Shown one piece after another: positions 5,433-46,473 of a stretch of DNA of 64,000 nt. The stretch comes from Halobacteroidaceae bacterium (GTDB lineage: Bacteria; Bacillota; Halanaerobiia; B1SED10-174). The notes beneath the pieces are model-generated. The model was given only the letters and a program-made list of their open reading frames with translations. It was not told where the DNA came from and made no database searches. The DNA lies in contig PUNE01000127.1 of assembly GCA_003551665.1 (NCBI GenBank), positions 2,640-66,639 of the forward strand, written 5' to 3'. Positions within the stretch are counted from its first letter, which is position 1. The number at the start of each line of letters is the position of its first letter. A program made the translations under genes and the position numbers.

Positions 5433-6455
5433 GTGAAGATTAAAGAGAGAGCAGTGGTCAGGATGGCGACTGTACTATTAATGCTATTCATGGTGTTTTC
5501 TTGGAGTCCTCAAGTTGATGCGCAGGAACAAATGGTTTTTGCCGATTTTAACTGGGATAGTGTCCAGGTCCACAACAGAATTGCAGGTTTTATTGCCAAG
5601 CATGCCTTTGGCTTTGAACCGGTATATGAGTTTGGAGAAACTGTTCCCCTGATTACCGGTCTGCGGCGCGGTGATGTTGATGTTTCCATGGAGATGTGGG
5701 TTGATAATACTCGAGAAATCCATGAAGAAGCAATGGAAGCCGGAGATATTATTGATTTAGGGCCCAATTTCCCCGATTCTCCCCAGGGCTGGTATATTCC
5801 GACCTTTGTAATTGAAGGGGATGAAGATCGTGGTATTGACCCAATAGCTCCTGATTTAAAATCCGTTTTTGACCTTCCCGATCACTGGGAACTATTCCGC
5901 GATCCTGAAAACCCTGATAAGGGACGCTTTTACAATGCTCCTCCAGGATGGGTTGTACACGACATTAATATTACCAAATTTGAAACCTATGGGCTCGATG
6001 AGCATTTTGAAATCTTCAATCCTGGTTCTGACGCCGCCCTGGCAACTGCTTTTGTCACGGCTTACGAACGGGGAGAACCCATTATCGGGTATTACTGGGA
6101 GCCCACCTGGTTGACTGGTCTATTAGATCTGACCATGCTGGAAGAACCTCCCTATGACTCCGAACAGTGGGAAGAAGATAAAGGTACTGAATTTAACCCC
6201 TGCCCGGTCCATATTGCGGTAAACTCTGGTCTGGTCGAAAAATCGCCCCAGATGGTTTCCTTCCTGGCTCACTACGAAACCACCATGGACCAGAACAATG
6301 AAATTCTTGCCTACATGAGGGAAGAGGAAGCTTCAATCGAAGAAGCAGCTTTATGGTTTTTGGACAATTACAGGGATGTTTGGCATGAATGGTTCGTCCA
6401 GGACAGCTTAATAGAAAAAGTAGAAGCGGCTATAGCCGAGGAGCTTGGTAACTAG
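5433..6455 (+). CDS. opuAC: Glycine betaine/proline betaine ABC transporter substrate-binding protein
   Basis: Signal peptide, then FADFNWDSVQVHNRIAGFI... and IIGYYWEPTW, typical of ProX/OpuAC. Very acidic. Confidence 0.75.
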   Translation: MKIKERAVVRMATVLLMLFMVFSWSPQVDAQEQMVFADFNWDSVQVHNRIAGFIAKHAFGFEPVYEFGETVPLITGLRRGDVDVSMEMWVDNTREIHEEAMEAGDIIDLGPNFPDSPQGWYIPTFVIEGDEDRGIDPIAPDLKSVFDLPDHWELFRDPENPDKGRFYNAPPGWVVHDINITKFETYGLDEHFEIFNPGSDAALATAFVTAYERGEPIIGYYWEPTWLTGLLDLTMLEEPPYDSEQWEEDKGTEFNPCPVHIAVNSGLVEKSPQMVSFLAHYETTMDQNNEILAYMREEEASIEEAALWFLDNYRDVWHEWFVQDSLIEKVEAAIAEELGN

Positions 6456-7330
6456 TGACCAAGGCAATTGAAGTAAAAGACCTGTGGAAGGTCTATGGAC
6501 CCAGAAAAGAAAATGTACCCCTTGATCAACCGGAGAAGTTATCGAAAATGGAAGAAAAACGGGAAGCCGTTGTTGCAGTCCGCGATGTTTCTTTTTCCGT
6601 TGACTCCGGGGAAGTCTTTGTGGTAATGGGTCTTTCCGGCAGCGGGAAATCAACCCTGATCAGGTGTTTGATGCGGCTGGTGGAGCCGACTGCAGGCAGC
6701 ATTAATATGAACGGGGAAGATGTTTCTTCCCTTAGCAACCAAGAATTAACTCAATTCCGGCGGAATGCGGCGGCCATGGTGTTTCAACACTATGGCCTCC
6801 TTCCCCACCGGACTGTCCTGGAGAATGTTTCATTTGGTTTAAATTTAAAAAAGGTCCCTCGCAGGGAGCGGGAAGAAAGAGCCAGGGAATTGCTCAGCAC
6901 CGTTGGGCTGGAGGGATGGGATAATTATTATCCAGCAAATCTAAGTGGAGGTATGCAGCAACGAGTAGGAATTGCAAGGGCCCTTGCTTCCGACCCACCA
7001 ATTTTGCTAATGGATGAGCCATTTAGCGGACTGGATCCGCTGATTAGGCGAGAGATGCAGGAAGAAATGGTTGACCTCCACCAAAAAACAAACAAGACAA
7101 TTTTCTTTGTTACCCATGACCTTGATGAAGGGATGCGCCTGGGTGACCGGATGGCAGTAATGCGCGGGGGATCTTTTGTCCAGGTTGGAACACCCGAAGA
7201 AATTCTGGATGACCCTGCAGATGAATATGTTGCCCGTTTTGTCCAGGATAAAAAAGAAATGTTTCAAGAAGCGGAAAAAGAAAACAAAGGCAAGCAGGAT
7301 AGAAAGGGGTTGACAGAGGATGTTTCCTGA
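6455..7330 (+). CDS. opuAA: Quaternary-amine ABC transporter ATP-binding protein (no CBS domains)
   Basis: Walker A GLSGSGKST, signature LSGGMQQRV, Walker B LLMDEPFS, H-loop VTHD. Only 291 aa, ending in a Lys/Glu-rich tail. Confidence 0.8.
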   Translation: MTKAIEVKDLWKVYGPRKENVPLDQPEKLSKMEEKREAVVAVRDVSFSVDSGEVFVVMGLSGSGKSTLIRCLMRLVEPTAGSINMNGEDVSSLSNQELTQFRRNAAAMVFQHYGLLPHRTVLENVSFGLNLKKVPRREREERARELLSTVGLEGWDNYYPANLSGGMQQRVGIARALASDPPILLMDEPFSGLDPLIRREMQEEMVDLHQKTNKTIFFVTHDLDEGMRLGDRMAVMRGGSFVQVGTPEEILDDPADEYVARFVQDKKEMFQEAEKENKGKQDRKGLTEDVS

Positions 7331-8171
7331 TGCGTGGGAGTTTAGCATAGCACGATGGATCAATGATTTTACCAACTGGCTTTTAACAACTTTTTCAGCA
7401 TTTTTCGATGCTCTGTCGGGGATCATCCTTTCGCTCCTATTAAATATCCATTCTGGACTGGAAACTATCCCCTGGTGGATTTATATCCTGGCTATTGCTC
7501 TAACTGCTTTTTTCACCACAAAAAAGATTGGACTTACTATAGTTTTGAGTATTTTACCGGTTATTGTCGGGCTTTTCGGCCTGTGGGACCTGGCCATTGA
7601 AACAATTGCCATCGTTTTAACTGCAGTTGTTATTGCCATAATCATTGGTATTCCCTTAGGAGTTATTATGGCTGAGTTTAAAAGGATGGAAGGTCTGGGC
7701 CGGCCTATTCTTGATGCCATGCAGACCATGCCCAGTTTCGTTTACCTCATCCCAACAATGATGCTTTTTGGCCTGGGGAAAGTACCCGCAGTCCTGGCAA
7801 CGGTAATTTATGCTGTCCCACCGGTAATCAGGCTTACAAACCTTGGTTTGCGCCAGGTATCCCAGGAGGTCCAGGAGGCTGCACTGGCTTATGGAGCTAC
7901 CCGTTTTCAACTTCTCAAAGAAGTGCGCATTCCGCTGGCCATGCCCTCCATCCTTGCAGGCGTTAACCAGACAACCATGATGGCTCTGGCCATGGTGGTT
8001 ATTGCGTCAATGATTGGTGGAGGTGGACTGGGGTATGAGGTTCTTGTTTCCATCAACAGAATTGACGTGGGAAGGGGTTTTGAGGCAGGTATTAGCGTAG
8101 TAATTCTGGCTATTGTAATTGACAGGCTCACCCAGGGTTTTGCCAAGCGCTTCGAACCCCCGAGCAACTAA
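7320..8171 (+). CDS. opuAB: Glycine betaine ABC transporter permease
   Basis: Multi-TM protein with the EAA-type loop AALAYGATRFQLLKEVRIPLAMPSILAG. Overlaps opuAA by 11 nt. Confidence 0.8.
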   Translation: MFPDAWEFSIARWINDFTNWLLTTFSAFFDALSGIILSLLLNIHSGLETIPWWIYILAIALTAFFTTKKIGLTIVLSILPVIVGLFGLWDLAIETIAIVLTAVVIAIIIGIPLGVIMAEFKRMEGLGRPILDAMQTMPSFVYLIPTMMLFGLGKVPAVLATVIYAVPPVIRLTNLGLRQVSQEVQEAALAYGATRFQLLKEVRIPLAMPSILAGVNQTTMMALAMVVIASMIGGGGLGYEVLVSINRIDVGRGFEAGISVVILAIVIDRLTQGFAKRFEPPSN

Positions 8172-8695: not shown

Positions 8696-8945
8696 AAATA
8701 GGCTAGGAGCGGGAGGAGTACCCATTACTGACTCTTATAGCGAACCGGGGCTGGTGGAAGCCCGGTAGATAGGAAGTGGGGAATATCACCCGGGAGCTGC
8801 AGACTGAATTATCAGTAAGTCTGTCGGTTGCCTCACCGTTAACAGGGGTAGGGCATTGGAGTGCCTGATTGAGTGGGCTATTTTGGCCAATTAAGGTGGT
8901 ACCGCGGGAAACCCCGTCCTTAAAGAGGATCGGGTTTTTTTTATT
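8696..8945 (+). promoter_or_regulatory. T-box riboswitch leader with Ile (AUC) specifier
   Basis: T-box sequence AATTAAGGTGGTACCGCGGG at 8889-8908. Candidate specifier GAATATCA (ATC 8785-8787 followed by a purine). Terminator AAACCCCGTCC...GGATCGGGTTTTTTTTT at 8909-8943. Confidence 0.85.
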
Positions 8946-12183: not shown

Positions 12184-13374
12184 GTGAAAGATAAAATCAA
12201 TAACTACATCGAGGAAAAAAAAGATCGCTGGGAAGAAGTTGCCCGCTACATCTGGGAAAATCCCGAACTGGGACATCAGGAGTTCAGGGCTCAAAAAGTC
12301 CTGGTTGATTTGCTTATTGAACTTGGCTTTGAAGTTGAAAAGGGAACAGCCGGGCTGGAAACTGCTTTCTGGGCGGAAAAAGGGAATAAAGAAGGTGGGC
12401 CGACTATTGCTTTTCTGGCGGAATATGATGCGCTCCCCAACCTGGGCCATGCCTGCGGACATAATCTCATAGGGGTTATGTCAGTTGCGGCGGCTGCAGC
12501 CCTTGGAAAGGTGCTTCCTCCTGGGGCAGGGAGGGTAGTTGTAATCGGTACTCCCGCCGAAGAGACTGACGGGGGCAAGGTAAGCATGGTGGAGGCAGGG
12601 ACATTTTCCGAAGTGGATGTTGCCATGATGGTTCATCCCTCCAGTAAATATGAAAAGAGCGGCAGCTCCCTGGCGCTGGAAGCAGTCCAGTTTGATTTTT
12701 TTGGCCGATCATCCCATGCTGCAGCTTCTCCGGAAAAGGGTTTGAATGCGCTGGATGCTGTAGTTAACATGTATAATGCAATCAGCAATTTAAGACAGCA
12801 GGTTCCTGATGGGGTTAGAATCCACGGAATTATTTCCAGGGGTGGTGAAGCAGCAAATATGATTCCCGAGCAGACCCAGGCCAGGTATTATCTGCGGGCA
12901 CCTGAATTAAGCCAGCTTGCAGATATAAAGGAAAGGGTGGTTAATTGCGCCGAGGGTGCTGCACTAGCGACAGGATGCCGGGTTGAAATATCCAACTACG
13001 AAATGGGTTATGCTCCTCTGAAATCAAATCAAAAACTGAATGATCTCTTCCAGGAAAACCTGGTTTCACTTGGTGTTTCTCCCGGGGAAATTGAAGAGGG
13101 GTCAGCAAAGGGTTCAGTTGATATTGGAGATGTAAGTCAGGTTGTTCCGGCCATTCATCCCACTATTAAAATAATGGACGAACCCCAACCCGGACATACA
13201 AGGGAGTTTGCTCTGGCAGCAAACAGCCCCAGAGCCTTCGAGGCCATGCTGCTGGGGGCAAAGGCTCTGGCTTTTTCCGGGTATGATTATTTTGCCCAAA
13301 CGGAAATCCAAAAAAGGGTGCAGGAAGAATTTGGGGCTGCAAAAAGGAATAGAAAAGACAAAACCTCTGATTAA
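12184..13374 (+). CDS. M20-family amidohydrolase/peptidase (AbgB-like)
   Basis: LAEYDALPNLGHACGHNLIG metal-site motif, GTPAEE, 396 aa. Confidence 0.75.
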   Translation: MKDKINNYIEEKKDRWEEVARYIWENPELGHQEFRAQKVLVDLLIELGFEVEKGTAGLETAFWAEKGNKEGGPTIAFLAEYDALPNLGHACGHNLIGVMSVAAAAALGKVLPPGAGRVVVIGTPAEETDGGKVSMVEAGTFSEVDVAMMVHPSSKYEKSGSSLALEAVQFDFFGRSSHAAASPEKGLNALDAVVNMYNAISNLRQQVPDGVRIHGIISRGGEAANMIPEQTQARYYLRAPELSQLADIKERVVNCAEGAALATGCRVEISNYEMGYAPLKSNQKLNDLFQENLVSLGVSPGEIEEGSAKGSVDIGDVSQVVPAIHPTIKIMDEPQPGHTREFALAANSPRAFEAMLLGAKALAFSGYDYFAQTEIQKRVQEEFGAAKRNRKDKTSD

Positions 13375-13388
13375 ATCAGAGGTTTTTA
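13359..13388. terminator. Bidirectional terminator between convergent genes
   Basis: ACCTCTGAT (13363-13371), loop TAA, ATCAGAGGT (13375-13383). A-tract on the 5' side and T5 on the 3' side. The loop is the M20 stop codon, and the T-tract overlaps the stop of the minus-strand gene. Confidence 0.7.
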
Positions 13389-15047
13389 CTTGAAAAGGTG
13401 GCAGGCAACCCGGCGGCCGGGCTCAACTTTTTTAAGAACCGGGGGGGCTTTCTGGGAAAACCTTACCCAAACCCGCCGGTTTTCATATTCAACTTCTGTA
13501 CAGGCTTTGGCCAGTACTTCATGTTCAGAAGCCATTAATGCCTGAACTTTCTCTATTAAGTCCTGCCAGGAAATACCAGCCGAATGGGCGAGTTCCAATG
13601 CCAGGTCGCCATCTTTATGACCGAAACTGTTAATGGATTGACTAAGATCGCTTTTTTGGATAAGGTTCTCAAGGTCGGCCCCTTCCCAGCCGCAATAAGG
13701 AAGGGCATCTCTGCAGGCGGAATGAAAAGAACACCCGTTAATTGGATCCTGGACGGGTAAGGGAACGGATAAATCCATATCAGATCCCAGAATTGCTCTA
13801 GAGTAGGGGTGGAGCGGTTTTTCCCGGATGGATTGCTGAGGACCATCTTCAATCAGGTTACCTCGAAAAATTATTCCCAGGTTGTGAGTTAGGGAGAGGT
13901 CGGTTCTGGTCGTGGTGATGGTAACATTTGTCCTCTGGTCTTTTATTATGGAATGAAGCAATTTAAGGTTTTCGGGGATCAACCCCCCCGGATTATTTAT
14001 TATAACCAGGCGGGGCTGGATAATAGAGGCCCATAAAAGGAAAATACTCAATTCCTGGGCGGGGGAAATTTCACCGGGAAAAGCTGAAAGGATATTATCC
14101 TGCTGGAGGGGGAAACAGCTGGTGATTTTTTCCTGAAGTTCCGGGAAAATTTGCTCAAGGTTTTTACCTGCCTTTAAATGCCGGGAAAATAATAAAATGC
14201 TCTTGCCTATTGTTTTCCCCGGCAGAAAAACAGGGTGCTGGTAATAGAGCATCTCCCGGGGTTTCAATATGCATACCCTTGTCCCACGGTCCGGGCTTTT
14301 TATCCCTGCGAGGATCTGACCCAGGCTTTCAGCAGTTTGTTTGCTATCGCAGATAAAGGTCCAGGACTGGTTTTGAGCGACATCAATATTCCATTCCTCG
14401 CTGGTATTAACCTGAAAATTATGCAGGGAAAGGATCTTGTAATCAGGAGGAGCTGGTTTCAATTCTGAGGAAGGATTTTTTTCAGGGGGTGGAATGGAGA
14501 TTATATCACCAGCACTCACCTGGAAGTAGTCCTGGATAAGTGGGTTTTGGGGAAGATTCTGGTCGAGAAGCTGTAGAAGAGCAGTATTTTTTTGAGAGAA
14601 AAGCTGAAAAAGCTCTTCGAGGGTTCGCTGGCGGGCAAAAGGGCCAAGATCTGTAAGTGCATCCCGGGCGATGACCAGGGGCGGGGCAGAGAAAGCAATA
14701 TCCAACCACCGAAAAATATTTAGAATATAGGAGGGGAAGTATGCCGGCTTCTTTTGCAAAAAACCCGGAGGCAAGGTAATAATCTTTTCGGCAGTGCTAC
14801 CTGCAGCAGCAGACAGTTGTTTTCCCAGGGATTGAGTGGGGTTAAAATAATCATTTGGTTCTGGGCTAACCCATAGTGCATCTTCAGCAAGCCGGGGGAA
14901 GAGTTCCCCATTTTTTAAAATTGTCGTCAATTGACCTGCAGGGTCTGCAACTTGAAATCTCTGGCCTTCTGCCAGATGAAAGGAACTGATGTTAAGAGCC
15001 GGTGAGTGGTTCTTATCCCGTTCAAGGTTTTTTATTTCAATGAGCAT
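13386..15047 (-). CDS. Fused double OppD/OppF-like ABC ATPase homologue with degenerate catalytic motifs
   Basis: Two ABC-like halves plus the oligopeptide C-terminal module (PLHPYSRAILGS...GCSFHSACRDALPYC...RRVACHLF). Walker A, signature, Walker B and H-loop positions read ADPAGQLTT / PSYIL / LVIARDAL / LLDQ in half 1 and CDSKQTAES / ISPAQ / LVIINNPG / TTRTD in half 2. Confidence 0.7.
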   Translation of the reverse strand: MLIEIKNLERDKNHSPALNISSFHLAEGQRFQVADPAGQLTTILKNGELFPRLAEDALWVSPEPNDYFNPTQSLGKQLSAAAGSTAEKIITLPPGFLQKKPAYFPSYILNIFRWLDIAFSAPPLVIARDALTDLGPFARQRTLEELFQLFSQKNTALLQLLDQNLPQNPLIQDYFQVSAGDIISIPPPEKNPSSELKPAPPDYKILSLHNFQVNTSEEWNIDVAQNQSWTFICDSKQTAESLGQILAGIKSPDRGTRVCILKPREMLYYQHPVFLPGKTIGKSILLFSRHLKAGKNLEQIFPELQEKITSCFPLQQDNILSAFPGEISPAQELSIFLLWASIIQPRLVIINNPGGLIPENLKLLHSIIKDQRTNVTITTTRTDLSLTHNLGIIFRGNLIEDGPQQSIREKPLHPYSRAILGSDMDLSVPLPVQDPINGCSFHSACRDALPYCGWEGADLENLIQKSDLSQSINSFGHKDGDLALELAHSAGISWQDLIEKVQALMASEHEVLAKACTEVEYENRRVWVRFSQKAPPVLKKVEPGRRVACHLFK

Positions 15048-15777
15048 CCTTTTTTCCCCCTTCTGTCAGGAGTGAACAGGCCAGTGCTGTAAGAAGGAAA
15101 AGGAGCCCTGGCCAGAGGAAACTCCACCAGTTATTGGGCCAGTTGGAATGAAGGTAGGCGTTGTTCAATGCGGTTCCCCATGTGGGCAAGAAAGAGGGAA
15201 CTATGCCTAAAAAGCTAACTGTGGTTTCAACTGTTAGGATACAAAGGAAGATCCGGATAAAGGATTTTATCAGGGGAGAAAGTGAAGCGGGTAGGGTGAT
15301 TCGGAAAAACCGGGTGGTTGGGGACAAATCTACAACCCGACTGGCCAGAAAAGAGGGGTGCTCGTTAAGTTTTTCAAGGAAACCAGCAAGCCTGGGATAA
15401 ATATCCAGTCCTGCAAATCCAATTGAACCCAGGGCCAGGGCAGGCAAAAAGTGAAAACCTGTTGCCAATAAAAACAGGGCCAGAATAATAGGAGGCAGGC
15501 CGCTCCAGAAAGGCAAAAGATTAACCCTGGGAAATAGAGCAAGGAGGTAGAAAAACAGGGTCACCGGTAATGCCAGCCCTCCAGAGATGAGAAGCGTGTG
15601 GCGGGTTTTCTGGAAGAAACCTAATGAATCCAGGGGGGGGATTAAGGGAACCAGGATTAGGCCAAAAAGAAAAATTATTGCCAGGAGGTTCAGGGGATAT
15701 CCCGGGTGGTCTAAAAAGAGTTTTTTTATTCTCGGAAAAAAGGGAGTTGGTATCTGTTTCGGGATTTTTTTTGTCAT
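15037..15777 (-). CDS. Divergent, short OppC/DppC-like ABC permease
   Basis: C-terminal half follows the OppC pattern (ITLPASLSPLIKSF...VETTVSFLGIVPSFLPTWGTALNNA...WPGLLFLLTALACSLL). ATGA stop/start overlap with the upstream gene. Confidence 0.6.
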   Translation of the reverse strand: MTKKIPKQIPTPFFPRIKKLFLDHPGYPLNLLAIIFLFGLILVPLIPPLDSLGFFQKTRHTLLISGGLALPVTLFFYLLALFPRVNLLPFWSGLPPIILALFLLATGFHFLPALALGSIGFAGLDIYPRLAGFLEKLNEHPSFLASRVVDLSPTTRFFRITLPASLSPLIKSFIRIFLCILTVETTVSFLGIVPSFLPTWGTALNNAYLHSNWPNNWWSFLWPGLLFLLTALACSLLTEGGKKDAH

Positions 15778-16487
15778 TTAACCCCCTCCCCCCTAAGAAT
15801 TTTATTTGTTTCTTCTCCCATTACCCATAACCAGTTAATGAGCATAACCAGGCTAATGATTGCAGCAAATATTACTGCAACCAAAAGGTAATCCTGCTGA
15901 AGAATACTGTTAAAAAGCAGGGGCCCAATTCCAGGCCAGGCAACTACAGTTTCAAAAGCAAGATGGGAACCGGTGGCCATTAAAACAAAAGATACCTGGG
16001 CTGGCCAGGGCCTTGGTCTCCGGAGGAAATTAACCCCCGCAAATGTATAAAAAAGGAATGCCAGAAAGAAGGGAATAAGGGGGTTATGTTCCGGGGGAAG
16101 ATTAAATAAATGAAAAAAACCCACAAAAACCAGGCCCCACCAGAAAAAGGGGGCGGAGCTGATAACTTTTGCTGCGGAAATGAATACCGGGGGCAACCCC
16201 TCTTTCCAGAAACGGTACAGGACAGGTAGAGCAAGAAGGATTGCCGGCAGGGCCAGGGAAAATGTGGAAAATAACCCGCCTGTTACAAGGGTGGCAGTGG
16301 GAAGACCGTACTGGGAAGATTTTATGTGGTTTATATTCCAGGGGGCATTGAGAAAATCCCAAAATGCTGCCGGTGTTAATTCAAGGAGACCCATAGAGAC
16401 CAGTCGGGCGAAGACAAGAAAGAGGAGGAATATCCAGGTAGCCAAAAAATAAGCTGTGGTTTTAAGGTGCCCTGATAAAAAGTGCAT
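15774..16487 (-). CDS. Divergent, short OppB/DppB-like ABC permease
   Basis: ETVVAWPGIGPLLFNSILQQDYLLVAVIFAAIISLVMLINWLW parallels the OppB C-terminal consensus. ATG at 16487 lies 7 nt after AGGAGG; the ORF-track start at 16523 would overlap the upstream gene. Confidence 0.6.
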   Translation of the reverse strand: MHFLSGHLKTTAYFLATWIFLLFLVFARLVSMGLLELTPAAFWDFLNAPWNINHIKSSQYGLPTATLVTGGLFSTFSLALPAILLALPVLYRFWKEGLPPVFISAAKVISSAPFFWWGLVFVGFFHLFNLPPEHNPLIPFFLAFLFYTFAGVNFLRRPRPWPAQVSFVLMATGSHLAFETVVAWPGIGPLLFNSILQQDYLLVAVIFAAIISLVMLINWLWVMGEETNKILRGEGVK

Positions 16488-16503
16488 TTTCAGTCCTCCT
16501 GGA

Positions 16504-17607
16504 TTATATTTGGAAATTACCATCCTTGTAGATCAATTCCCCATCGGCGAAAATTTCTCCACCGGTGCGCATATCGCACAATAAATCCCAGTGGATTGCG
16601 GATTTATTTTTGCTTCCCGTTTCAGGGTACCCGTTACCCAGGGCCAGGTGAATGGTTCCGCCAATTTTTTCATCAAAGAGCATGTTTTTGGTGAAATGTT
16701 TGATCCCATAATTGGTCCCCATTGCAATCTCTCCTACATAGGAAGAGCCATCATCAGTTTCGAGAATTGTCTGGAGCAGGTCTTCTCCTTTTTTGGCAGT
16801 GGCATTAACTACCTTTCCCCGGGAGAAGGTTAGCCTGATATCTTCAATTTCCCGGCCCAGGTATATTCCGGGAAAGCTGAAACGGATATGGCCGTTTACA
16901 GAATCTTCTACTGGAGCAGTAAAGATTTCCCCGTCGGGGAAGTTGTTTTTTCCATCGCAGTTTTCCCATTTTCGTCCCGAAATATTCATTTTTAGGTCAG
17001 TGTCTTCGGACTTGAAATGGAGTTCAGAGCATTTTTCCAGGTGGTTTATATATTTTTCATGCTGGTTGTGGATTTTTTTCCAGGCTGCAATGGGATCCTT
17101 TTCATTTAGCAGGCAGGCCCCGAAAACGAATTCAGTATATTCGTCAAGGGACATATTTCCTTCCTGGGCAGCGGCGTAAGTTGGATACTGGGTTCCGCAC
17201 CAGCTCAGTTTTCCTTCGGCTGCTCGTTTCATAAATGTTTGCATGATTTCAGTGCTTGCCCTCTGGCTCTGTCTCATTTTCTCCGGGGAAATGTTGCTCA
17301 ATTCCCGGGTATTTAATGGAGCACTGATACTGAGCAAGGCGTCATATTCGTTGGCAATAAGATTGACTACAGGCGAAATATACTCGACCTGGTGGTCGGC
17401 CCCTTCTTTTAATAGGATTTCTGTGAGCCCTGGCAACTGCAAGCGAGTTTCAGGGTAAGCTCCCATGCGGATTCCTTCCCGGAAAACTTCTTTAATAAGG
17501 GGGTAGGCAGCTTCCTGAGAATTAATTGCCAGCTTCTGACCTTCCTTTAAATCCAGGGAATGGTTGACCAGGACCCGGGCCATTTTAGCTATACGTGGAT
17601 CAGGCAT
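16504..17607 (-). CDS. M29-family aminopeptidase (AmpS/PepS type)
   Basis: N-terminal ARVLVNHSLDLKEGQKLAI and C-terminal GTIHLALGNGYPETGSKNKSAIHWDL are typical of thermophilic metalloaminopeptidases. Confidence 0.8.
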   Translation of the reverse strand: MPDPRIAKMARVLVNHSLDLKEGQKLAINSQEAAYPLIKEVFREGIRMGAYPETRLQLPGLTEILLKEGADHQVEYISPVVNLIANEYDALLSISAPLNTRELSNISPEKMRQSQRASTEIMQTFMKRAAEGKLSWCGTQYPTYAAAQEGNMSLDEYTEFVFGACLLNEKDPIAAWKKIHNQHEKYINHLEKCSELHFKSEDTDLKMNISGRKWENCDGKNNFPDGEIFTAPVEDSVNGHIRFSFPGIYLGREIEDIRLTFSRGKVVNATAKKGEDLLQTILETDDGSSYVGEIAMGTNYGIKHFTKNMLFDEKIGGTIHLALGNGYPETGSKNKSAIHWDLLCDMRTGGEIFADGELIYKDGNFQI

Positions 17608-17610
17608 TTT

Positions 17611-18504
17611 TCATTCCTCCTCGGGGCAAATAACCCTAAATTTTTGGTGAATAACTCCAACCTGGAGAGGGGTGGAGCCATAAATTGAACCGTCAAACAT
17701 TTTTGGATAATCCGCAACAGTTGTAAGATTGATCTTGCTGGCTCTGTGGAATTCCACCTGGGGGTGATTGCGGTGTCCACCGCTGTAAACCCGTGGGAGC
17801 AGGCCAAGCAATCCTCCCCGAGAAAGATTGTTCATGATTACCACGTCCAGCAAACCATCCTGTGGATCGGCATCAGGGGCCACCATCAGGCCACCTCCAG
17901 TAAAACGGGTATTGAGAATGAAAACCCCACTGGCCTGGCGAATTAGTTTTTCCCCATCAAGATCAAGTTCAAGGGGAATGGGTTGGAGCAGGGAAACCGT
18001 TTTAACAACGTTATAGGCTATGGCCATGGAACCCCGAAGCAATCCTTTGTAATTATTGGTTCTATGCATTACTTCAGCGGGAAAACCAACTCCAGCAATA
18101 ATAGAAAAGAGCCGGTCTTTTTCTTTTCCCAGATCAATCCTGCGAATTCGGCCTCCGGCCAGAAGTGAAACGCTTTCCAGGGGCTGGAGGGATATTCCCA
18201 GGCTGCGGGCAAGGTCATTTCCTGTTCCCAGAGGTATAACTCCAAAGACGGGGCCTTCCGGCCCCAGACCATTTATTACTTCGTTAACTGTTCCATCTCC
18301 CCCGACTGCACAAACCGCATCAAAGTTATTGTTACCGGCTTCCTCTGCCAGGTGGGTTGCGTGGTCAGGTGCATCGGTTTTCACCAGTTCATATGGGATC
18401 CCGTAATGTTTTAGCCTTTTATGGAGTTCGGGAATAAGTTTTCCCGCCCGCCCCCCTCCGGCAACAGGATTTACAATTATTAAAACCGAGCTGAATAAAC
18501 CCAC
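17611..18504 (-). CDS. YegS/BmrU/DagK-family lipid kinase
   Basis: NPVAGGGRA, GGDGTVNEV and GTGNDLARSLG motifs, 297 aa. Confidence 0.8.
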   Translation of the reverse strand: MGLFSSVLIIVNPVAGGGRAGKLIPELHKRLKHYGIPYELVKTDAPDHATHLAEEAGNNNFDAVCAVGGDGTVNEVINGLGPEGPVFGVIPLGTGNDLARSLGISLQPLESVSLLAGGRIRRIDLGKEKDRLFSIIAGVGFPAEVMHRTNNYKGLLRGSMAIAYNVVKTVSLLQPIPLELDLDGEKLIRQASGVFILNTRFTGGGLMVAPDADPQDGLLDVVIMNNLSRGGLLGLLPRVYSGGHRNHPQVEFHRASKINLTTVADYPKMFDGSIYGSTPLQVGVIHQKFRVICPEEE

Positions 18505-18515
18505 CTGTTTTCCTC

Positions 18516-19799
18516 CTAACCCTTAATGGATATATTGACTGGGTTGATCAATACGGGAGGCAGAAGCATATTATCCGCCCACTTTTGTTCCGAACCTATT
18601 GCAGAGATTCTTTCTTTGAAAGCCTGGAAAATATTGAGGGAGAACATGGCATCTTTAACCCTGCCCTCAATCCGGCCGTTTTTAATTTTATATCCCAGGG
18701 AAATATTGCCGCTAACCTGGCCCCCGTAAGGATTGCCTGCCCAGGCACCCATGGTTCCCGCAATCAAAAGCCCTTCATCGATACTTTCCAGCATTTCCGA
18801 AAAAGAATTATTTCCGGGTTCCATAACCAGGTTGTTGAAGTCCGGACCATTTTCTCCCCCGGTCCCAGTAGGAGAAAGGTCCAATTTGTGAGCTGTTTCC
18901 AGATCAAGAACGTAATTCTTAAGCCTTCCCTTTTCTATCAGGGGGAAGGAGGAGCAGGCCACTCCTTCCCTATCAAAGGGCTTACTTGCAGGGCCCCGAT
19001 CCAAAATCCCCTGGTTGGAGAGACTGAACTCGGAAGAAAAAACCTGTTCTCCAAGCCTGTTTTCCCAGGGAGAAAGGCCACGGACAACTGCCTGTCCGTT
19101 CAGACAGGCCTCCACCGGGTGGAGAATATCTGCTAAAGTTTCGGGAATAAAAAGGACAGGATAGTTTCCTGAGCGCAGGGGTACATTGGTACGCCCCCAG
19201 TCAATTTCCCGCAGGAGATTTTCGCAATCGTTTTCCCAGTCGATATCCCGCCAGTGAGTTCTTTGGGGAAAAGAGTAGTTGACCAGAAGGTTTTTCCCTT
19301 CAATTAATCTCAGGGCAAAAAGGACCTTTACCTGGCTTTGCCGGAATGAACTGGAAAAACCAGCACTGTTTTCCAGCTCGAAGAAATTTTTTTCTTTCTG
19401 GATGCTGACTTCTGCCTGGATGTCGGGATGATATTGTGTAGCCTTATTGATAAAATCCTGTGCAGTTTGGATCAACTCTTCCAGGGGGAGGTTTACTAAC
19501 TCTTCGTCCCAGATCTCGGGCTTTTTTAACCGGGTCTGCGCGGGGAAGGCAAAGTCAACGCGGGGACCATAATCTAAGGTTTCTCTTGCCATTTTACTTA
19601 AGTATTCTCTATTGTTGGGTTTGGTATTTTCCCCAATTCCAATTCTTCCGTTTTTTATCAACCGCAGGACTTCCCGATTGGTTTCCCCGGAATTAATTTT
19701 CTTCAAACGGTTATTGGCGAATTGAACAGTAGTATGGCTGCTTTGTTTCCTGTAGAGATCACCCTGTTCCCCTGCTTGCAGCATTTTTTTTAATTGCAT
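18516..19799 (-). CDS. pmbA: PmbA/TldE-family metalloprotease subunit
   Basis: TldD/PmbA-fold C-terminal region (GLLIAGTMGAWAGNPYGGQVSGNISLGYKIKNGRI). Lacks HExxxH. 1-nt overlap with tldD. Confidence 0.75.
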   Translation of the reverse strand: MQLKKMLQAGEQGDLYRKQSSHTTVQFANNRLKKINSGETNREVLRLIKNGRIGIGENTKPNNREYLSKMARETLDYGPRVDFAFPAQTRLKKPEIWDEELVNLPLEELIQTAQDFINKATQYHPDIQAEVSIQKEKNFFELENSAGFSSSFRQSQVKVLFALRLIEGKNLLVNYSFPQRTHWRDIDWENDCENLLREIDWGRTNVPLRSGNYPVLFIPETLADILHPVEACLNGQAVVRGLSPWENRLGEQVFSSEFSLSNQGILDRGPASKPFDREGVACSSFPLIEKGRLKNYVLDLETAHKLDLSPTGTGGENGPDFNNLVMEPGNNSFSEMLESIDEGLLIAGTMGAWAGNPYGGQVSGNISLGYKIKNGRIEGRVKDAMFSLNIFQAFKERISAIGSEQKWADNMLLPPVLINPVNISIKG

Positions 19800-21175
19800 T
19801 AACTCTCACCTCCAATTACGACGTTCTGGACCCGAATATGAGGTGATCCCTCACTGGTGGGAAGTGGTGATTGTTCGAATTTTCCGCAACCGCCAGCATT
19901 ATTCAAAATTACAAAATCCTTCCCGATCCGGTCGATATTATCGAGGGTATGAAAGACATTCCCGGTCAGGGTAACGTTTTTTACAGGTTCTGCAAGCCTG
20001 CCGTTGCGGATCATCTGACCTCGGGTGGCAGTGAAGGTAAAAAGCTCTCCATTTGTTTCTCCCCCGATACCCCCGATGGCATACACCCCCAGGTCGATTC
20101 CCGAAAGCATTTCTTCGAAGGTGTCAGGACCGGCTTCAATACAGGTTGACCGCATGCGGCAGATGGGAGGAAAACGATAGTTGATTGCCCGGGCATTTCC
20201 AGTTGGCCGAGCTTCCATTTTGGCAGCTGATTCCCGGGAGTGAAGATGTCCCACAACTTCCCCACCTTTAATCAGGTAGGTTTTTTCCGTTGGAGTTCCT
20301 TCGTCATCGTATTGCATGCAGCCCCGATTTCCCCATTCCCGTCCACTATCATAAATATTTAAAAAAGAGGGGCCGTAGCGGGTCCCCAGTTGCATCAGCT
20401 TGAGGAGGTTTTTATCTTCATAAATTTCATCGGCTTCACTTAAGTGCCCAAAAGCTTCGTGGACAAAGAGTCCTGCCATTTCAGGGTCCAGGATAACTGT
20501 GTACTCTCCGCCCTTTACGGTGGGAGCGGTTAACTGGTCAGCAGCCCTCTGGGCGGCAGCTATAACTGCTTCATCGTGTCCCCGTGCGGTTCCAAAATCA
20601 TTGGTTGACCCAAAAGATACTGCATCGTAGGTTCTATCCTGCCCGTCACTTGCCGTTGCCCCAAGATTGCCCCCGATATCTGTCTTTTCCTGGTAGATGA
20701 AAGAGCCATCTGAATTGGCGAAATACCAATTAGTATGTTTGTCAAAGTAGACAATTCGAGTGCTGGTGATGCGGGGATCGGCTTTCAGAATAAGCTGGTT
20801 ATAGTGTTCAAGGAGTTCTGCTTTTTCTTTTAGAGTAATTTTCCGTGGGTCTTCGAGATATTTTGTAAAAACTTCATCTTCTATTGGTTCGGCCGGAGCG
20901 AGAGTTGTAGATCCATTTTTCACCCTGTTAATTGTGCTGGCCTGTTCTTCGGCCAGACGCAGCTTTTTTTCCAGGTCATCCAGGTGGTTAAATGAAACAA
21001 AACCCCATCCATTTCCGATGAGGCTTCGAATACATCCTCCAAACTGAATTTTACGTTCCATTTTCTCAATTTCCCTGCCCCGGAAAGAAATGAATGTAAC
21101 CTCGGTTTCTTCAATTCGAATATCACAGTAATTAGATTTGCTTAGAGAAAGCAGGTCTTGCATTTTTAACTGCAA
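19799..21175 (-). CDS. tldD: TldD-family zinc metalloprotease
   Basis: HEAFGHLSE zinc motif and GGCGK C-terminal motif. In-frame starts at GTG 21190, TTG 21175 (8 nt after GGAGG, preferred) and ATG 21163. Confidence 0.8.
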   Translation of the reverse strand: MQLKMQDLLSLSKSNYCDIRIEETEVTFISFRGREIEKMERKIQFGGCIRSLIGNGWGFVSFNHLDDLEKKLRLAEEQASTINRVKNGSTTLAPAEPIEDEVFTKYLEDPRKITLKEKAELLEHYNQLILKADPRITSTRIVYFDKHTNWYFANSDGSFIYQEKTDIGGNLGATASDGQDRTYDAVSFGSTNDFGTARGHDEAVIAAAQRAADQLTAPTVKGGEYTVILDPEMAGLFVHEAFGHLSEADEIYEDKNLLKLMQLGTRYGPSFLNIYDSGREWGNRGCMQYDDEGTPTEKTYLIKGGEVVGHLHSRESAAKMEARPTGNARAINYRFPPICRMRSTCIEAGPDTFEEMLSGIDLGVYAIGGIGGETNGELFTFTATRGQMIRNGRLAEPVKNVTLTGNVFHTLDNIDRIGKDFVILNNAGGCGKFEQSPLPTSEGSPHIRVQNVVIGGES

Positions 21176-21229
21176 ACAAACCACCTCCACAGTCCAGATA
21201 AATCGGTATAAAATCTGGATCGATTTTTT

Positions 21230-22087
21230 TCAGGAAACAGAAAACTCCAGGAGTAGAAAATCCGGTTCGGTGGCCTTTCCCCAGGGTAAAAATCCCCGTC
21301 GTTTGAAAAACTGAATCAGGGGAGGATAGGAAGGGATTTTAACCATAACTGAACCGGCCTTTTGTTTTTTGCTCAGGTTCAAGGTCCAGTTTAGAAGGAG
21401 ATTTTGCACCTCCAGACTGCCAGAAATTGAAGAAATGTAGGCAAAATCATTTGGGGAAGAAGGCGGAGTATATAGTATATAACCCCGATGCAGGGAATAT
21501 ATTTGGCCTTTTTCAATATATTTTTCCAGGCTGTTCTGGCTTAGGTGCCGAAACTGCCAGTTGGCTGCCATGTAACCATTCCCGTATTTTATGAAAGGGC
21601 TGCGACTGATATCTTCCATTATCTGAGGGGTAATTTCTGTTATGCGCCGGGGAACAGTTTTGGATTCAGGTGTGGGTGCATTCAGGGGACGACTGAAAAG
21701 GTGATATTTCCCTGCAATACGTGCCCCCCGGTTGCGGGCCATATTAATTGAAGCTTCATTTGAGGAATGAGCGGCATAGCGGACAACGTCCACGCCATCT
21801 TTTTTGGCTTTTTCCAGGAAATATTCCAGTAGACCGCTTCCGATTCCCTCACCTCGCCTTTCTTTTTTTATTCGGGCACCGTGTAACCAGGCTTCTCCGG
21901 GGCCGAGAAGGGTAAACTTGCCGTATCCTACCAGTTCTCCATTAATGAGGACGGCAGTGAACTCACCGTCCTCTTCATTTAGCCATTCATCCCAGACAAG
22001 GTGAATGTAGTCCTCTCCATCCCATGTTTCAGCCGCAATGGCAAGGGCAGCCTCTTTGTCTTCAGGTTTTAGGGGGCGGAATTGCAT
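21230..22087 (-). CDS. GNAT-family N-acetyltransferase with an extra C-terminal domain
   Basis: RIKKERRGEGIGSGLLEYFLEKAKKDG acetyl-CoA-binding motif. About 140 additional C-terminal residues. Confidence 0.7.
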   Translation of the reverse strand: MQFRPLKPEDKEAALAIAAETWDGEDYIHLVWDEWLNEEDGEFTAVLINGELVGYGKFTLLGPGEAWLHGARIKKERRGEGIGSGLLEYFLEKAKKDGVDVVRYAAHSSNEASINMARNRGARIAGKYHLFSRPLNAPTPESKTVPRRITEITPQIMEDISRSPFIKYGNGYMAANWQFRHLSQNSLEKYIEKGQIYSLHRGYILYTPPSSPNDFAYISSISGSLEVQNLLLNWTLNLSKKQKAGSVMVKIPSYPPLIQFFKRRGFLPWGKATEPDFLLLEFSVS

Positions 22088-22119
22088 CAGGGATATCCCT
22101 CCTGTGGTAAAGAAAAATC

Positions 22120-22617
22120 TTAAAAAGGTTCGAAGCCCATGTCAAACCAGAATTCCTGCATCATCTGCTGGTACATTTTATAGAGGTAGTTAAGGTGTTT
22201 TTCTTCCCAGTTGGCCAGTTCGACAAAAAGGTCCCTGGCTTCTTTTTCAGAAACCTGCTGGCTTGCCTTTTTATAAAAATCGTGGAAATCCTTCTCTATA
22301 AGGTAAGCCATGCGAATGATTGGCAGGTCCTTTTTTGTTTTCTGGTCCAGTTCTTCTTCCTGTCGTCTTTCAAAAATGAACTCTTCTTCAGTAATGTTTT
22401 CTGGGTCAAAAGAAATTGCCTGCCTTTCTCCCAGTTCCAAAATTTTATTCTGGATAAAGTTTACGTGTTCCTGTTCAAAATCCGATAGCTTTTCGAAAAG
22501 CTTTCTGGCCTCAAAATCATGTACATTTTTGGCCTGTTCCCTGTAAAAAGAGGCGCCCTTTTTTTCCATTTCCAGAGCATACTCAAGGATTTTTTTGGTT
22601 TTACTCAAAATAATCAC
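22120..22617 (-). CDS. Ferritin-like/rubrerythrin-family diiron protein (no rubredoxin domain)
   Basis: Two helix pairs with E...ExxH-type spacing (ALEMEKKG...FEQEHVNFI; IEKDFHDFY...WEEKHLNYL). Confidence 0.65.
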   Translation of the reverse strand: MIILSKTKKILEYALEMEKKGASFYREQAKNVHDFEARKLFEKLSDFEQEHVNFIQNKILELGERQAISFDPENITEEEFIFERRQEEELDQKTKKDLPIIRMAYLIEKDFHDFYKKASQQVSEKEARDLFVELANWEEKHLNYLYKMYQQMMQEFWFDMGFEPF

Positions 22618-22660
22618 CCCTTTTTTTTGTTAATTCGTCATTCAGCAGCGGATACCTTTC

Positions 22661-22693
22661 CAAAAAGAAAAAGAGTCCCAGGTGGGGACTCTT
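22661..22693 (-). terminator. Rho-independent terminator after mgtE
   Basis: On the minus strand, AGAGTCCC pairs with GGGACTCT and is followed by TTTTTCTTTTT, immediately after the mgtE stop. Confidence 0.75.
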
Positions 22694-24091
22694 TTATACA
22701 ATTCCCAGGAAAAAATTGGCTAAAAGGAAATAAATTAAAATTCCACTCATATCTTTTATGCTGGTAATGATGGGAACCGAACCTGCAGCCTGGTCAAACC
22801 CCATGGCCAAAACAAGGCGGGGAATTAAAAAACCAAGAACACTCGCCAGGACCATGGTAAAAATAAGGGAAAGGGTAACAACGATTCCAATGTTAAAATC
22901 CCCCTGCCAGAACCAGGCAAAAAGGCCCCCTCCGACACCAATTAAGACACCAAGGGCCAAACCAACCAGTGATTCCCTTAGGACGTATTGCCAGAAACTG
23001 TCAAGTTTAATCTGGCCAAGGGCAATGGCCCGGGCAAAAATAGTTGAAGACTGGGTACCAACGTTTCCTCCCATGTCCATAATTACGGGGATAAAAAAGG
23101 CCAGTGCAACTACTGTTTCCAGGGTCTGCTCAAAGGCCCCGATCAATCTTCCCGCAAGCATCCCTCCCACAAGGGTTATCAGGAGAAAGGGAAGCCTTAC
23201 ACGCAGGGACTGCGTCATTGGACCTTCAATCAGGCGGAGGCTGCGGAGCCCTTCCTGTTCAACGGGTGTAACCCCCACCGAAGAATAGGCGGTCATTGTT
23301 TCTTCTCTTTCCAGGACATCGAGGGCGTCATCAATGGTAATAATTCCAACAAGACGGTTTTCTTTATCTACAACAGGGATGGCCAGAAAATCCAGATCTC
23401 CAAGCAGGCGGGCAACCAGTTCCTGCTTGTCGTGAGTGTTAACTGCAATAACTTCGGGGTCCATTAAATCTTCTACTATTTGCTCCGGTTCCGCCACAAC
23501 AAGGTTGCGAAGGGAGACCACTCCTTCCAGGTGGCGCTGGCGGTCGGTAACGTAGCAGTAATAAATTGTTTCAGATGTAAGCCCAGCTTTGCGAATACGG
23601 TCCAGAGCTTCTTTTACTGTCATTTCTTTTTTTAGTGATAAGTAGTTGGGGGTCATCAGCCTTCCAGCACTGCCCCGTGGGTAACCAATGAGAGTCATGG
23701 CTTTATCAAGCTCGTGTTCTTTCAGAGAGCCCAATAATTTTTTGGCTACTTTTGCGGGAACTTCATCCAAAAGCTGGACCTGGTCATCGGGGGGGAGGTG
23801 GGAAAACATTTTTGATCCTTCTTCAGTTCCCAGGCTCGCAATTACCTGAGTCTGGTCTTCTGGTTCAAGCTCCTCAAAAACTTCAATGGCGTTGTTTTTT
23901 GTCAGGAGTCTGAAGGCAGGACCAATCATGGGGAAGGGAAGGTGGTCAATGATGTGGGCGGCTTTTGTTACGTTCTGGTTAAGGAATTCTTTTGCCTCTT
24001 CTAACCGGCCTTCATGCAACATTTCTTCAACCAGCTTAACTTCTTCTTCAAGTTTAAAGCTCAGGGTTATCACCTCCTGGAGAAACAGCAT
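22694..24091 (-). CDS. mgtE: Magnesium transporter MgtE
   Basis: N-domain, tandem CBS region (YCYVTDRQRHLEGVVSLRNL...; AIPVVDKENRLVGIITIDDALDV) and TM domain with PVIMDMGGNVGTQSS. Start uncertain (see findings). Confidence 0.85.
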   Translation of the reverse strand: MLFLQEVITLSFKLEEEVKLVEEMLHEGRLEEAKEFLNQNVTKAAHIIDHLPFPMIGPAFRLLTKNNAIEVFEELEPEDQTQVIASLGTEEGSKMFSHLPPDDQVQLLDEVPAKVAKKLLGSLKEHELDKAMTLIGYPRGSAGRLMTPNYLSLKKEMTVKEALDRIRKAGLTSETIYYCYVTDRQRHLEGVVSLRNLVVAEPEQIVEDLMDPEVIAVNTHDKQELVARLLGDLDFLAIPVVDKENRLVGIITIDDALDVLEREETMTAYSSVGVTPVEQEGLRSLRLIEGPMTQSLRVRLPFLLITLVGGMLAGRLIGAFEQTLETVVALAFFIPVIMDMGGNVGTQSSTIFARAIALGQIKLDSFWQYVLRESLVGLALGVLIGVGGGLFAWFWQGDFNIGIVVTLSLIFTMVLASVLGFLIPRLVLAMGFDQAAGSVPIITSIKDMSGILIYFLLANFFLGIV

Positions 24092-46388: not shown

Positions 46389-46417
46389 AACAGCAAAAAA
46401 AATTACAGGGAAAAACC

Positions 46418-46448
46418 GGAATGGCAGGCGGCATCCGTCTGCCATTCC
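46418..46448 (+). promoter_or_regulatory. Intercistronic stem-loop after the binding-protein gene
   Basis: GGAATGGCAGGCGG, loop CAT, CCGTCTGCCATTCC: about 14 bp, no T-tract. Confidence 0.55.
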
Positions 46449-46473
46449 CATTAATTAGCTGGAGTGATGGATT

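Follow-up and report, generated by a model that had tools for sequence, protein, structure and literature searches.

A putative pseudo-ATPase of the fused OppD-OppF type, retained with reduced OppB- and OppC-like proteins in a Halobacteroidaceae bacterium

In the DppBCDF complex of Escherichia coli the tail of each ATPase binds a [4Fe-4S] cluster via four cysteines, and Cys-to-Ser mutation or oxidants disassemble the complex (PMC12136057). In OppABCD of Mycobacterium tuberculosis (Mtb) the cluster domain of OppD is important for assembly and stabilises the complex. The number of such Fe-S domains varies between the systems, with none in Mtb DppD, one in Mtb OppD, where it follows the first nucleotide-binding domain (NBD1), and two in E. 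coli (PMC12136057). The published papers leave the role of the cluster beyond assembly open. Here we analyse a stretch of 64,000 nt from a Halobacteroidaceae bacterium (contig PUNE01000127.1, assembly GCA_003551665.1), which we call the window and in whose numbering positions and strands are given unless another locus is named. On its minus strand lies a gene for a protein of 553 aa which aligns with fused OppD-OppF ATPases of the ATP-binding cassette (ABC) superfamily and appears to be catalytically dead in both halves. We suggest that this protein is probably a selected pseudo-ATPase which, with reduced OppB- and OppC-like proteins as its membrane partners, forms a relic Opp-type translocator and is the cytoplasmic subunit there. 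The gene and the parts of its product are as follows.

13386..15047, minus strand: gene of the fused, catalytically dead OppD-OppF-type protein (open reading frame (ORF) of 553 aa, ATG start, stop codon included)
14478..15047, minus strand: NBD1, residues 1-190, in the OppD position (motif-anchored alignment, hhalign)
14439..14477, minus strand: proline-rich linker, residues 191-203, in place of the first HPY/Cys tail of a canonical fused OppDF
13854..14438, minus strand: NBD2, residues 204-398, in the OppF position (motif-anchored alignment, profile matches)
13683..13853, minus strand: oligo_HPY module, residues 399-455, with H413-P414-Y415 and Cys439/Cys445/Cys452 (alignment to PDB entry 4fwi and to DppD/DppF)
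13416..13682, minus strand: alpha/beta insert domain of about 90 residues (456-544), beginning with CGWEGADL, between the third and the fourth cysteine
13386..13415, minus strand: terminal strand RRVACHLFK with the cysteine at the fourth ligand position (C549), and the stop codon

An initial, sequence-only reading of this stretch had held that every catalytic motif is ablated in both halves of the protein. We registered the motifs by an alignment anchored on those of catalytically intact fused OppDF proteins and found the same positions and the same losses. The Walker A motif GESGCGKS/T is replaced in NBD1 by ADPAG, a 2-residue deletion and QLTT and in NBD2 by CDSKQTAES, and a pattern scan for GxxGxGK(S/T) finds 0 sites in the protein. 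The signature LSGGM/Q reads FPSYI in NBD1 and ISPAQ (ISPAQEL) in NBD2, Walker B (ADEP/CDEP) reads ARDA and INNP, and the H-loop (ITHD/N) reads LLDQ and TTRT, respectively. The glutamine position of the Q-loop reads P/G in NBD1, with a proline in the window protein; in NBD2 only the window protein has a glutamine and its relatives have E, E and R. The segment YFNPTQSLGKQL, which had been read as resembling a Q-loop, is indeed present but it corresponds to the SLNP...GxQ segment which follows just after the Q-loop in the Opp family. The D-loop of NBD2 is shortened relative to intact fused OppDF proteins. In NBD1 about 25 residues of the beta subdomain are deleted and its own HPY/Cys tail is gone entirely; the protein has a single HPY/Cys module at its C-terminus, after NBD2, and not two.

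The protein has no Pfam match to ABC_tran (PF00005) at E<=1. Its sole Pfam match is oligo_HPY (PF08352) at residues 399-452, which with 23.3 bits stays below the cut-off of 27.1 bits. The TIGR01727 score is 25.0 bits compared to a cut-off of 37.6 bits, and the NCBIfam models of Opp/Dpp/Nik ATPases give weak matches within residues 273-462 only. An internal control is at hand in a glycine-betaine-type ABC importer (OpuAC, ABC_tran with a normal score, BPD_transp_1) which is encoded at 5433-8171 on the plus strand, just upstream of the gene for isoleucyl-tRNA synthetase (IleRS): normal ABC ATPases of this genome are readily recognised. Since the 553-aa protein fails the tests for a functional ABC ATPase (profile, Walker A and B, signature, H-loop), it should not be annotated as one. 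From its motifs we predict that it is unable to bind or to hydrolyse ATP.

The relationship to Opp-type ABC ATPases is clear all the same, and the fold appears to be retained. A profile of the protein and two orthologues (see below) matches the NBD of Thermoanaerobacter tengcongensis DppD (PDB 4fwi) with E=2.7e-12, and also E. coli DppD/F and OppD/F and Mtb Rv1281c. When NBD1 is compared by itself with single-NBD Opp ATPases, profile against profile in hhalign, the alignment covers 185 columns (93.8% probability, E=1.8e-7). The AlphaFold2 model of the protein has a mean predicted local distance difference test score (pLDDT) of 79.7 and a predicted TM-score (pTM) of 0.81, with the lowest confidence at residues 188-194. 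Searched with Foldseek, the model gives the fused Mtb DppD/OppD proteins as best matches (E ~1e-17) and many single NBDs as well. The protein is thus predicted to consist of two ABC-type NBD folds, each with a RecA-like core and a helical subdomain.

The sequence-only reading had further stated that the region with HPY and four cysteines is kept, and this is borne out. H413-P414-Y415 and the cysteines C439, C445, C452 and C549 are invariant in every alignment which we made, and the four cysteines align with the [4Fe-4S] ligand positions of E. coli DppD/DppF and of 4fwi. They may bind an Fe-S cluster in the dead protein too. The insertion before the last cysteine, which had been put at about 90 extra residues, also exists, but it is somewhat smaller: the third and fourth cysteines are 96 residues apart compared to 16-17 in E. 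coli DppD/DppF (ligand numbers of PMC12136057), which makes about 80 extra residues. Modelled alone, the C-terminal module reaches a pLDDT of 88.5, and the insert exceeds 90. No Pfam model covers the insert domain. Many Foldseek matches of the module extend over about 75 residues of family-5 substrate-binding protein (SBP) subdomains and of ArgR-C; these look like a generic alpha/beta similarity. The parallel to mycobacterial OppD which had been drawn holds insofar as Mtb OppD has one Fe-S domain, but there it comes after NBD1 and here it is in the DppF position, after NBD2. We also noted a fifth cysteine within the insert, C516 (nt ~13500-13502, minus strand, ...AKAC...), which is invariant in 4/4 members of the dead family; read by eye, its equivalent is missing in the active insert-bearing proteins P0026, P0032 and P0038.

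The conservation of the cysteines raises the question whether the protein is a redox or oxygen sensor, that is, whether a dead NBD dimer carries a [4Fe-4S] cluster whose oxidation switches the complex and in this way regulates peptide flux or access to peptidases. The ligand-position cysteines and HPY are invariant and lie in the most conserved region, and oxidants act through the cluster to take E. coli DppBCDF apart (PMC12136057). The host lineage is anaerobic and Halanaerobiales-like, a rubrerythrin gene belongs to the same co-directional string of genes, and the additional C516 is kept by the dead family alone. Ordinary, active transporters have this domain too, however, and for them a structural role is all that has been demonstrated; the neighbouring genes code for no regulator and no output domain. 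The needs of assembly already account for the retention of the cysteines and of HPY. The redox module which the sequence-only reading had invoked is thus unnecessary to explain why this region was kept, as the cluster is required for Opp/Dpp assembly (PMC12136057), and we consider a sensor a live but improbable alternative. The cytoplasmic subunit of a relic translocator, as proposed above, would need the module for the same reason: we suppose that it is the best-kept part because the Opp/Dpp cluster is needed for assembly, and redox chemistry need not be called upon.

Is the gene maintained? We searched 5.8 billion proteins and found two full-length orthologues of 553 and 554 aa with 55% and 52% identity to the window protein. 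They are located on contigs of metagenome-assembled genomes (MAGs) labelled Halobacteroidaceae bacterium and Bacillota bacterium as well as on sediment metagenome contigs. The orthologues share the substituted motifs and the gene order with the window, and the frames are open in all copies. Several records from separate assemblies contain the gene, by which a mis-assembly or MAG artefact is ruled out. Further searches added little: in word-indexed searches a four-sequence profile of the family gave no further members, and the C-terminal fragment by itself gave two weak partial matches only.

We computed the ratio of nonsynonymous to synonymous substitution rates (dN/dS) between the two orthologue lineages, for which dS is 0.61; dS towards the window is saturated, and the frame stays open across these saturated comparisons as well. 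For the dead-ATPase gene dN/dS is 0.25. Its parts differ, with 0.47 for NBD1, which evolves fastest, 0.12 for NBD2, 0.27 for the HPY/Cys region and 0.22 for the insert. The two permease-like genes upstream resemble it (0.19 and 0.27). Fourteen genes on the same contigs served as calibration, and housekeeping and neighbouring genes fall between 0.03 and 0.15. The three-gene module is therefore under relaxed but clear purifying selection. Because the orthologues are full-length and without frameshift, because frames, dead motifs and synteny are kept, and because dN/dS is clearly below 1, we regard the gene on comparative grounds as that of a maintained pseudo-enzyme and not as a pseudogene. These comparisons agree with what had been read from the single sequence, that is, a selected, non-hydrolysing ABC scaffold which keeps its Cys-rich HPY module, and they speak against plain gene decay.

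An exhaustive search with HMMER, run against 1.84 billion representatives of clusters, brought up a more distant clade of the same family. Only two matches fell below 1e-30: one is the representative of this family itself, the other is P0025 (614 aa, E=2e-58). P0025 and its relatives P0177 and P0178 have 25-27% identity to the window protein. They are dead at every motif of both NBDs and have lost the first HPY/Cys tail, and they keep HPY, the four cysteines and the insert. P0025 scores 18.3 bits with ABC_tran (cut-off 25) and 27.6 bits with oligo_HPY, just above the cut-off. At most dead-motif positions the two clades are unlike each other, which we attribute to drift. Both clades have in common a replacement motif, ISP(A/E)(Q/E)EL, at the former LSGGQ site of NBD2. 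This shared motif points to an inactivation which would have taken place already in the common ancestor of the two clades. Invariant columns between the clades amount to 30% in the HPY/Cys region, 23% in the insert, 18.5% in NBD1 and 14.5% in NBD2, so that the C-terminal module comes out as the best-conserved part in these alignments. The family as a whole is confined to few uncultured, Halanaerobiales-like metagenome lineages, several of them with sediment-type sample names.

The gene order TldD, PmbA, OppB-like, OppC-like, dead OppDF with IleRS convergent is identical in both clades, and the ORFs of the module overlap in the distant clade too. Between the clades IleRS is 66% and TldD 64% identical compared to only 20-31% for the module proteins. 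In the distant clade the genes for a YegS-type kinase and an M29 aminopeptidase are missing between PmbA and the module. Its OppC-like protein has 567 aa, keeps the H.LGTD..GRD motif and carries a Ycf48/BNR-like beta-propeller of about 320 residues between transmembrane segments 1 and 2. At locus L007 of this clade the region beyond IleRS (15441-19941, minus strand) contains a gene for a 546-aa radical SAM protein, a 50-aa ORF and an ABC-2 exporter (an ATPase and two ABC2_membrane_6 proteins); this gene row looks like a small cluster of the type for peptides made by the ribosome and modified after translation (RiPPs).

With both clades at hand we can judge whether the three genes are a slowly decaying relic, functionless and on the way to loss, with frames which are only transiently open. 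The catalytic motifs are all gone, dN/dS is above that of the neighbours, NBD1 and the OppB-like protein have suffered large deletions, and the family is rare. Set against this are three overlapping ORFs which remain open at the same length across saturated dS and into a clade of 25% identity, dN/dS values of 0.12-0.27, and a probability of about 2e-12, calculated from base composition, that a frame of 553 codons is open by chance (0/20,000 shuffles were open). There is in addition the new shared ISPxxEL motif, the conserved C-terminal residues and the retained Shine-Dalgarno sequence and translational coupling. We regard decay as largely refuted already and give it very little credence.

Equally hard to believe is a cryptic nucleotide binding via non-canonical residues, perhaps with slow hydrolysis, by which the module would still be an energised transporter. 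The RecA-like and helical ABC fold is predicted with good confidence and the length of the P-loop is preserved in NBD2. But there is no glycine-rich P-loop, no lysine and no Ser/Thr; acidic residues (D, E) stand at P-loop positions, and the P-loop of NBD1 has the 2-residue deletion. NBD2 lacks the acid pair of Walker B (INNP), neither half has a signature or the histidine of the H-loop, and the D-loop of NBD2 is shortened. Moreover, the motif residues differ between the clades, as is expected from drift and not from an alternative site.

We now turn to the operon in which the dead-ATPase gene is located. Its signals and the genes upstream are listed here.

13360..13386, minus strand: perfect 12-bp hairpin AAAACCTCTGA-TTT-AATCAGAGGTTTT, then a T-rich tail; begins at the stop codon of the dead-ATPase gene
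15055..15063, minus strand: strong Shine-Dalgarno sequence GAAGGGGGA, within the 3' end of the OppC-like gene
15037..15777, minus strand: reduced OppC/DppC-like permease, 246 aa (partial alignment to E. coli DppC)
15774..16487, minus strand: reduced OppB/DppB-like permease, 237 aa counted from the Met used in the orthologues (alignment of transmembrane segments 5-6)
16504..17607, minus strand: gene of an M29 aminopeptidase in this operon, restricted to the window clade
17611..18504, minus strand: gene of a YegS/DAGK-type lipid kinase in this operon, restricted to the window clade
18516..19799, minus strand: PmbA/TldE gene, without HExxxH, upstream partner kept in both clades
19799..21190, minus strand: TldD metallopeptidase gene, HEAFGH present, upstream partner kept in both clades

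The dead-ATPase ORF and the OppC-like ORF upstream share 11 nt, and this overlap together with the Shine-Dalgarno sequence suggests that the two genes are translationally coupled; both features are kept in the loci of the relatives. The hairpin is likely a bidirectional intrinsic terminator which is common to the dead-ATPase gene and the convergent M20 gene. The open frame, the tight coupling to the neighbours and the clean terminator had all been remarked on from the letters alone, and we find them as described. Upstream of TldD, genes for a GNAT acetyltransferase, rubrerythrin and MgtE (21230-24091, minus strand) precede the string on the same strand and with short gaps. This order is retained at loci L001 and L003 and not at L007. 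Concerning IleRS, a T-box leader (Rfam RF00230, 138 bits) is found at 8696-8924 on the plus strand upstream of the gene. The listed ORF of 1088 aa from position 8869 thus over-extends, and the start of IleRS is at about 8974 (MFKEV..., 1053 aa as in the relatives).

The two adjacent permeases which had been noticed are of the OppB/OppC type by weak but specific matches to OppB, OppC and DppC, far below the family cut-offs, but they are themselves strongly degenerate. The 246-aa OppC-like protein aligns to residues 138-290 of E. coli DppC. Its coupling helix is still there (LASRV compared to TASRV), as are the residues of the hydrophobic gate listed in PMC12136057, and the periplasmic loop OppC_N with the H.LGTD..GRD motif is absent from the window protein. 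In the 237-aa OppB-like protein only transmembrane segments 5-6 (ETVxAWPGIG...QQD) align to OppB/DppB; a deletion removes about 27 residues directly behind the EAA position, and a number of periplasmic loops are shortened, including the 'scoop' region which contacts the binding protein. Judged by these alignments both proteins appear to be strongly reduced relics of OppB and OppC. No SBP gene is present in the operon of the window or at loci L001, L003, L007 or L009, and the sole SBP_bac_5 protein of the window is encoded in a separate canonical cluster 30 kb from the dead-ATPase operon.

This canonical cluster (44769-48338, plus strand) consists of a family-5 SBP (539 aa), OppB (319 aa) and OppC (302 aa) with strong Pfam scores. 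No ATPase genes follow; after OppC there are an unknown 150-aa ORF, ORFs of 124 and 231 aa on the opposite strand and the gene for cysteinyl-tRNA synthetase. The ATPases of this set must be encoded elsewhere or be shared. That the dead protein, be it alone or along with its own permeases, serves this ATPase-less SBP-OppB-OppC set in the same window as a dominant-negative or regulatory partner strikes us as most unlikely, since translational coupling ties its gene to permease relics of its own with which it co-evolves, transport could not be energised by a dead NBD, and the ATPase genes of the canonical set may simply lie outside of the 64 kb.

We come back to our proposal, a relic translocator with the dead protein as its cytoplasmic subunit, and suggest the following arrangement. 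The dead fused OppDF would assemble with the reduced OppB-like and OppC-like membrane proteins whose two genes lie just upstream. The NBD dimer, although only structural, would still need the HPY/four-Cys [4Fe-4S] clasp which holds the NBDs and the complex together. NBD2 (dN/dS 0.12), the better-preserved half, is expected to dock on the OppC-like subunit with its surviving coupling helix, and NBD1 and the OppB-like subunit may have decayed together. The complex could then do its work independently of ATP and of a binding protein, along with the co-transcribed cytoplasmic peptidases TldD/PmbA and in the window clade also M29. As the contacts to the binding protein and the ATP sites are lost, the pore-lining transmembrane segments 5-6 are kept and peptidases are co-transcribed, we favour an ATP-independent role in peptide handling. 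Speculatively, this could be a membrane platform or a passive and possibly oxidation-sensitive conduit which feeds or positions peptides for TldD/PmbA. A more specific version, in which the importer has turned into an ATP- and SBP-independent complex and the dead NBD dimer, held by [4Fe-4S], is a redox-sensitive clasp and docking site coupling the membrane pair to TldD/PmbA, is conceivable but in our estimate rather doubtful.

Several observations weigh against the proposed translocator. Most of the coupling-helix region is gone from the OppB-like subunit, which makes the docking of NBD1 uncertain. Compared to their neighbours the three genes of the module evolve faster by a factor of 3-5, a sign of relaxed constraint. 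In the Foldseek search with the C-terminal module the insert gave no significant PDB match (best E=0.04, TM-score ~0.3). The dead family makes up just two 50%-identity clusters among the 1.84 billion representatives, all from uncultured hosts. Finally, the linkage to TldD/PmbA may partly be inherited synteny as the clades are related (IleRS 66%).

That the insert is the novel feature of this pseudo-ATPase was considered and rejected. An insert starting with CGW(E/T)G(R/A)D occurs in about 30 of 180 collected proteins, mostly together with a normal Walker A motif and LSGGQ in complete sequences, and where the context could be seen these active ATPases belong to SBP-OppB-OppC-OppD-OppF or SBP-OppB-OppC-fused OppDF operons, with the insert in the second NBD. 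As catalytically active OppF-type ATPases carry it, the insert is ruled out as a novelty of the dead protein and was instead inherited from an active OppF subfamily. Indeed, the CGWEGRD-type insert of about 80-100 residues defines a widespread OppF-type subfamily (P0026, P0031, P0032, P0038, P0040, P0074, P0116, P0147). The metagenome contig Ga0334886_1001436 (locus L017, 4207-10920) encodes an SBP, OppB, a propeller-bearing OppC and a fused OppDF of 782 aa whose two NBDs have intact motifs and which contains both Cys boxes as well as the CGW insert. Its OppC aligns end to end with OppC of L007 (8314-10017) with 26% identity over 552 residues (E=7e-65). From its sequence L017 is apparently a functional operon of the ancestor type. 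As a separate observation, L017 (apparently active) and L007 (dead module) reveal an OppC permease subfamily with a Ycf48/BNR-like beta-propeller of about 320 residues in the extracytoplasmic loop between transmembrane segments 1 and 2.

The simplest history would have three stages. It would begin with an active importer composed of SBP, OppB, OppC with propeller and OppDF with insert. Then, in the L007 type, the SBP would have been lost, the motifs would have died, the first tail would have disappeared and the module would have come to stand behind TldD-PmbA. In the window type, at last, the propeller would have been lost and the coupling region of OppB shortened, and the kinase and M29 genes would have been inserted.

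If the redox-sensitive clasp coupled to TldD/PmbA were real, be it as a gated peptide conduit or as a hand-over platform, the Opp fold would have given rise to a new functional class. The dead family would in any case be a natural experiment on uses of the Fe-S tail and NBD scaffold other than catalysis, and on an ATP-independent job for the membrane domain of a type I importer. The conserved linkage offers a testable partner in TldD/PmbA, the role of which in the cell is poorly defined.

Among the known systems Mtb DppD (8wd9/8wda/8wdb, chain D) and Mtb OppD Rv1281c (8j5q-8j5t, chain D) come closest in architecture, as they too have two consecutive Opp/Dpp-type NBDs in one polypeptide which is paired with OppB/OppC-type permeases (model match TM-score 0.52-0.57). 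Unlike the window protein, they are active, have intact motifs and use a binding protein, and the identity is only 12-16%; the Fe-S domain of Mtb OppD, as said, follows NBD1, and the one here follows NBD2 and contains the insert of about 80 aa. With E. coli DppD/DppF and OppD/OppF and with 4fwi, the best sequence match among the solved structures, the protein shares HPY and the pattern C-x5-C-x6-C ... C, but here the Fe-S-type domain is joined to a dead NBD. The active CGW-insert subfamily has the same alpha/beta insert between the third and fourth cysteine of its second NBD, and L017 is in addition fused like the dead family and has the propeller-bearing OppC in common with the distant dead clade. 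These active proteins differ in their intact motifs, SBP gene and full-size permeases and in having no linkage to TldD/PmbA.

The protein had been called an unusual pseudo-ATPase, which is right, but it is not unique. Among the top matches of the exhaustive search we found further fused Opp-type ATPases of this kind: P0097 (L014, 8001-9806) is dead at all motifs of both NBDs, P0063 (L015, 8001-10004) has a dead NBD2 and an NBD1 without the catalytic Glu and His, and P0041 has one dead NBD. These three proteins score 250-300 bits with the NCBIfam Gsi/Yej/Opp models compared to less than 27 bits for the window protein, and the Cys box, which the latter has, is gone from them. Again in contrast to the window protein, P0097 and P0063 are encoded by orphan genes without adjacent permease genes; the gene of P0097 adjoins a MurB-domain gene and is near SecA- and Ddl-domain genes. 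They are of independent origin and have diverged far less from the canonical families. To our knowledge none of the three has been characterised.

ABC-ATPase-derived pseudo-enzymes are hardly documented for importers, and the known cases of degenerate sites keep one working site. In our literature search, whose coverage is incomplete, we found no description of a fully dead importer-type ABC ATPase and nothing relevant on TldD/E-ABC gene neighbourhoods; a paper on TldE of T. kodakarensis has no bearing on the matter. CFTR, SUR, TM287/288 and Pdr5 are ABC transporters of the exporter fold in which one ATP site is degenerate and at least one working site is kept. SbmA/BacA, also of the exporter fold, is an ABC-fold peptide transporter which has no NBDs and works without ATP hydrolysis. 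In comparison to all of these, the case described here is that of a type I importer with both sites dead and the NBDs retained. What seems distinctive of the dead family, judging from its gene neighbourhoods and alignments, is that it has retained its own relic translocator, the Fe-S tail and the linkage to TldD/PmbA.

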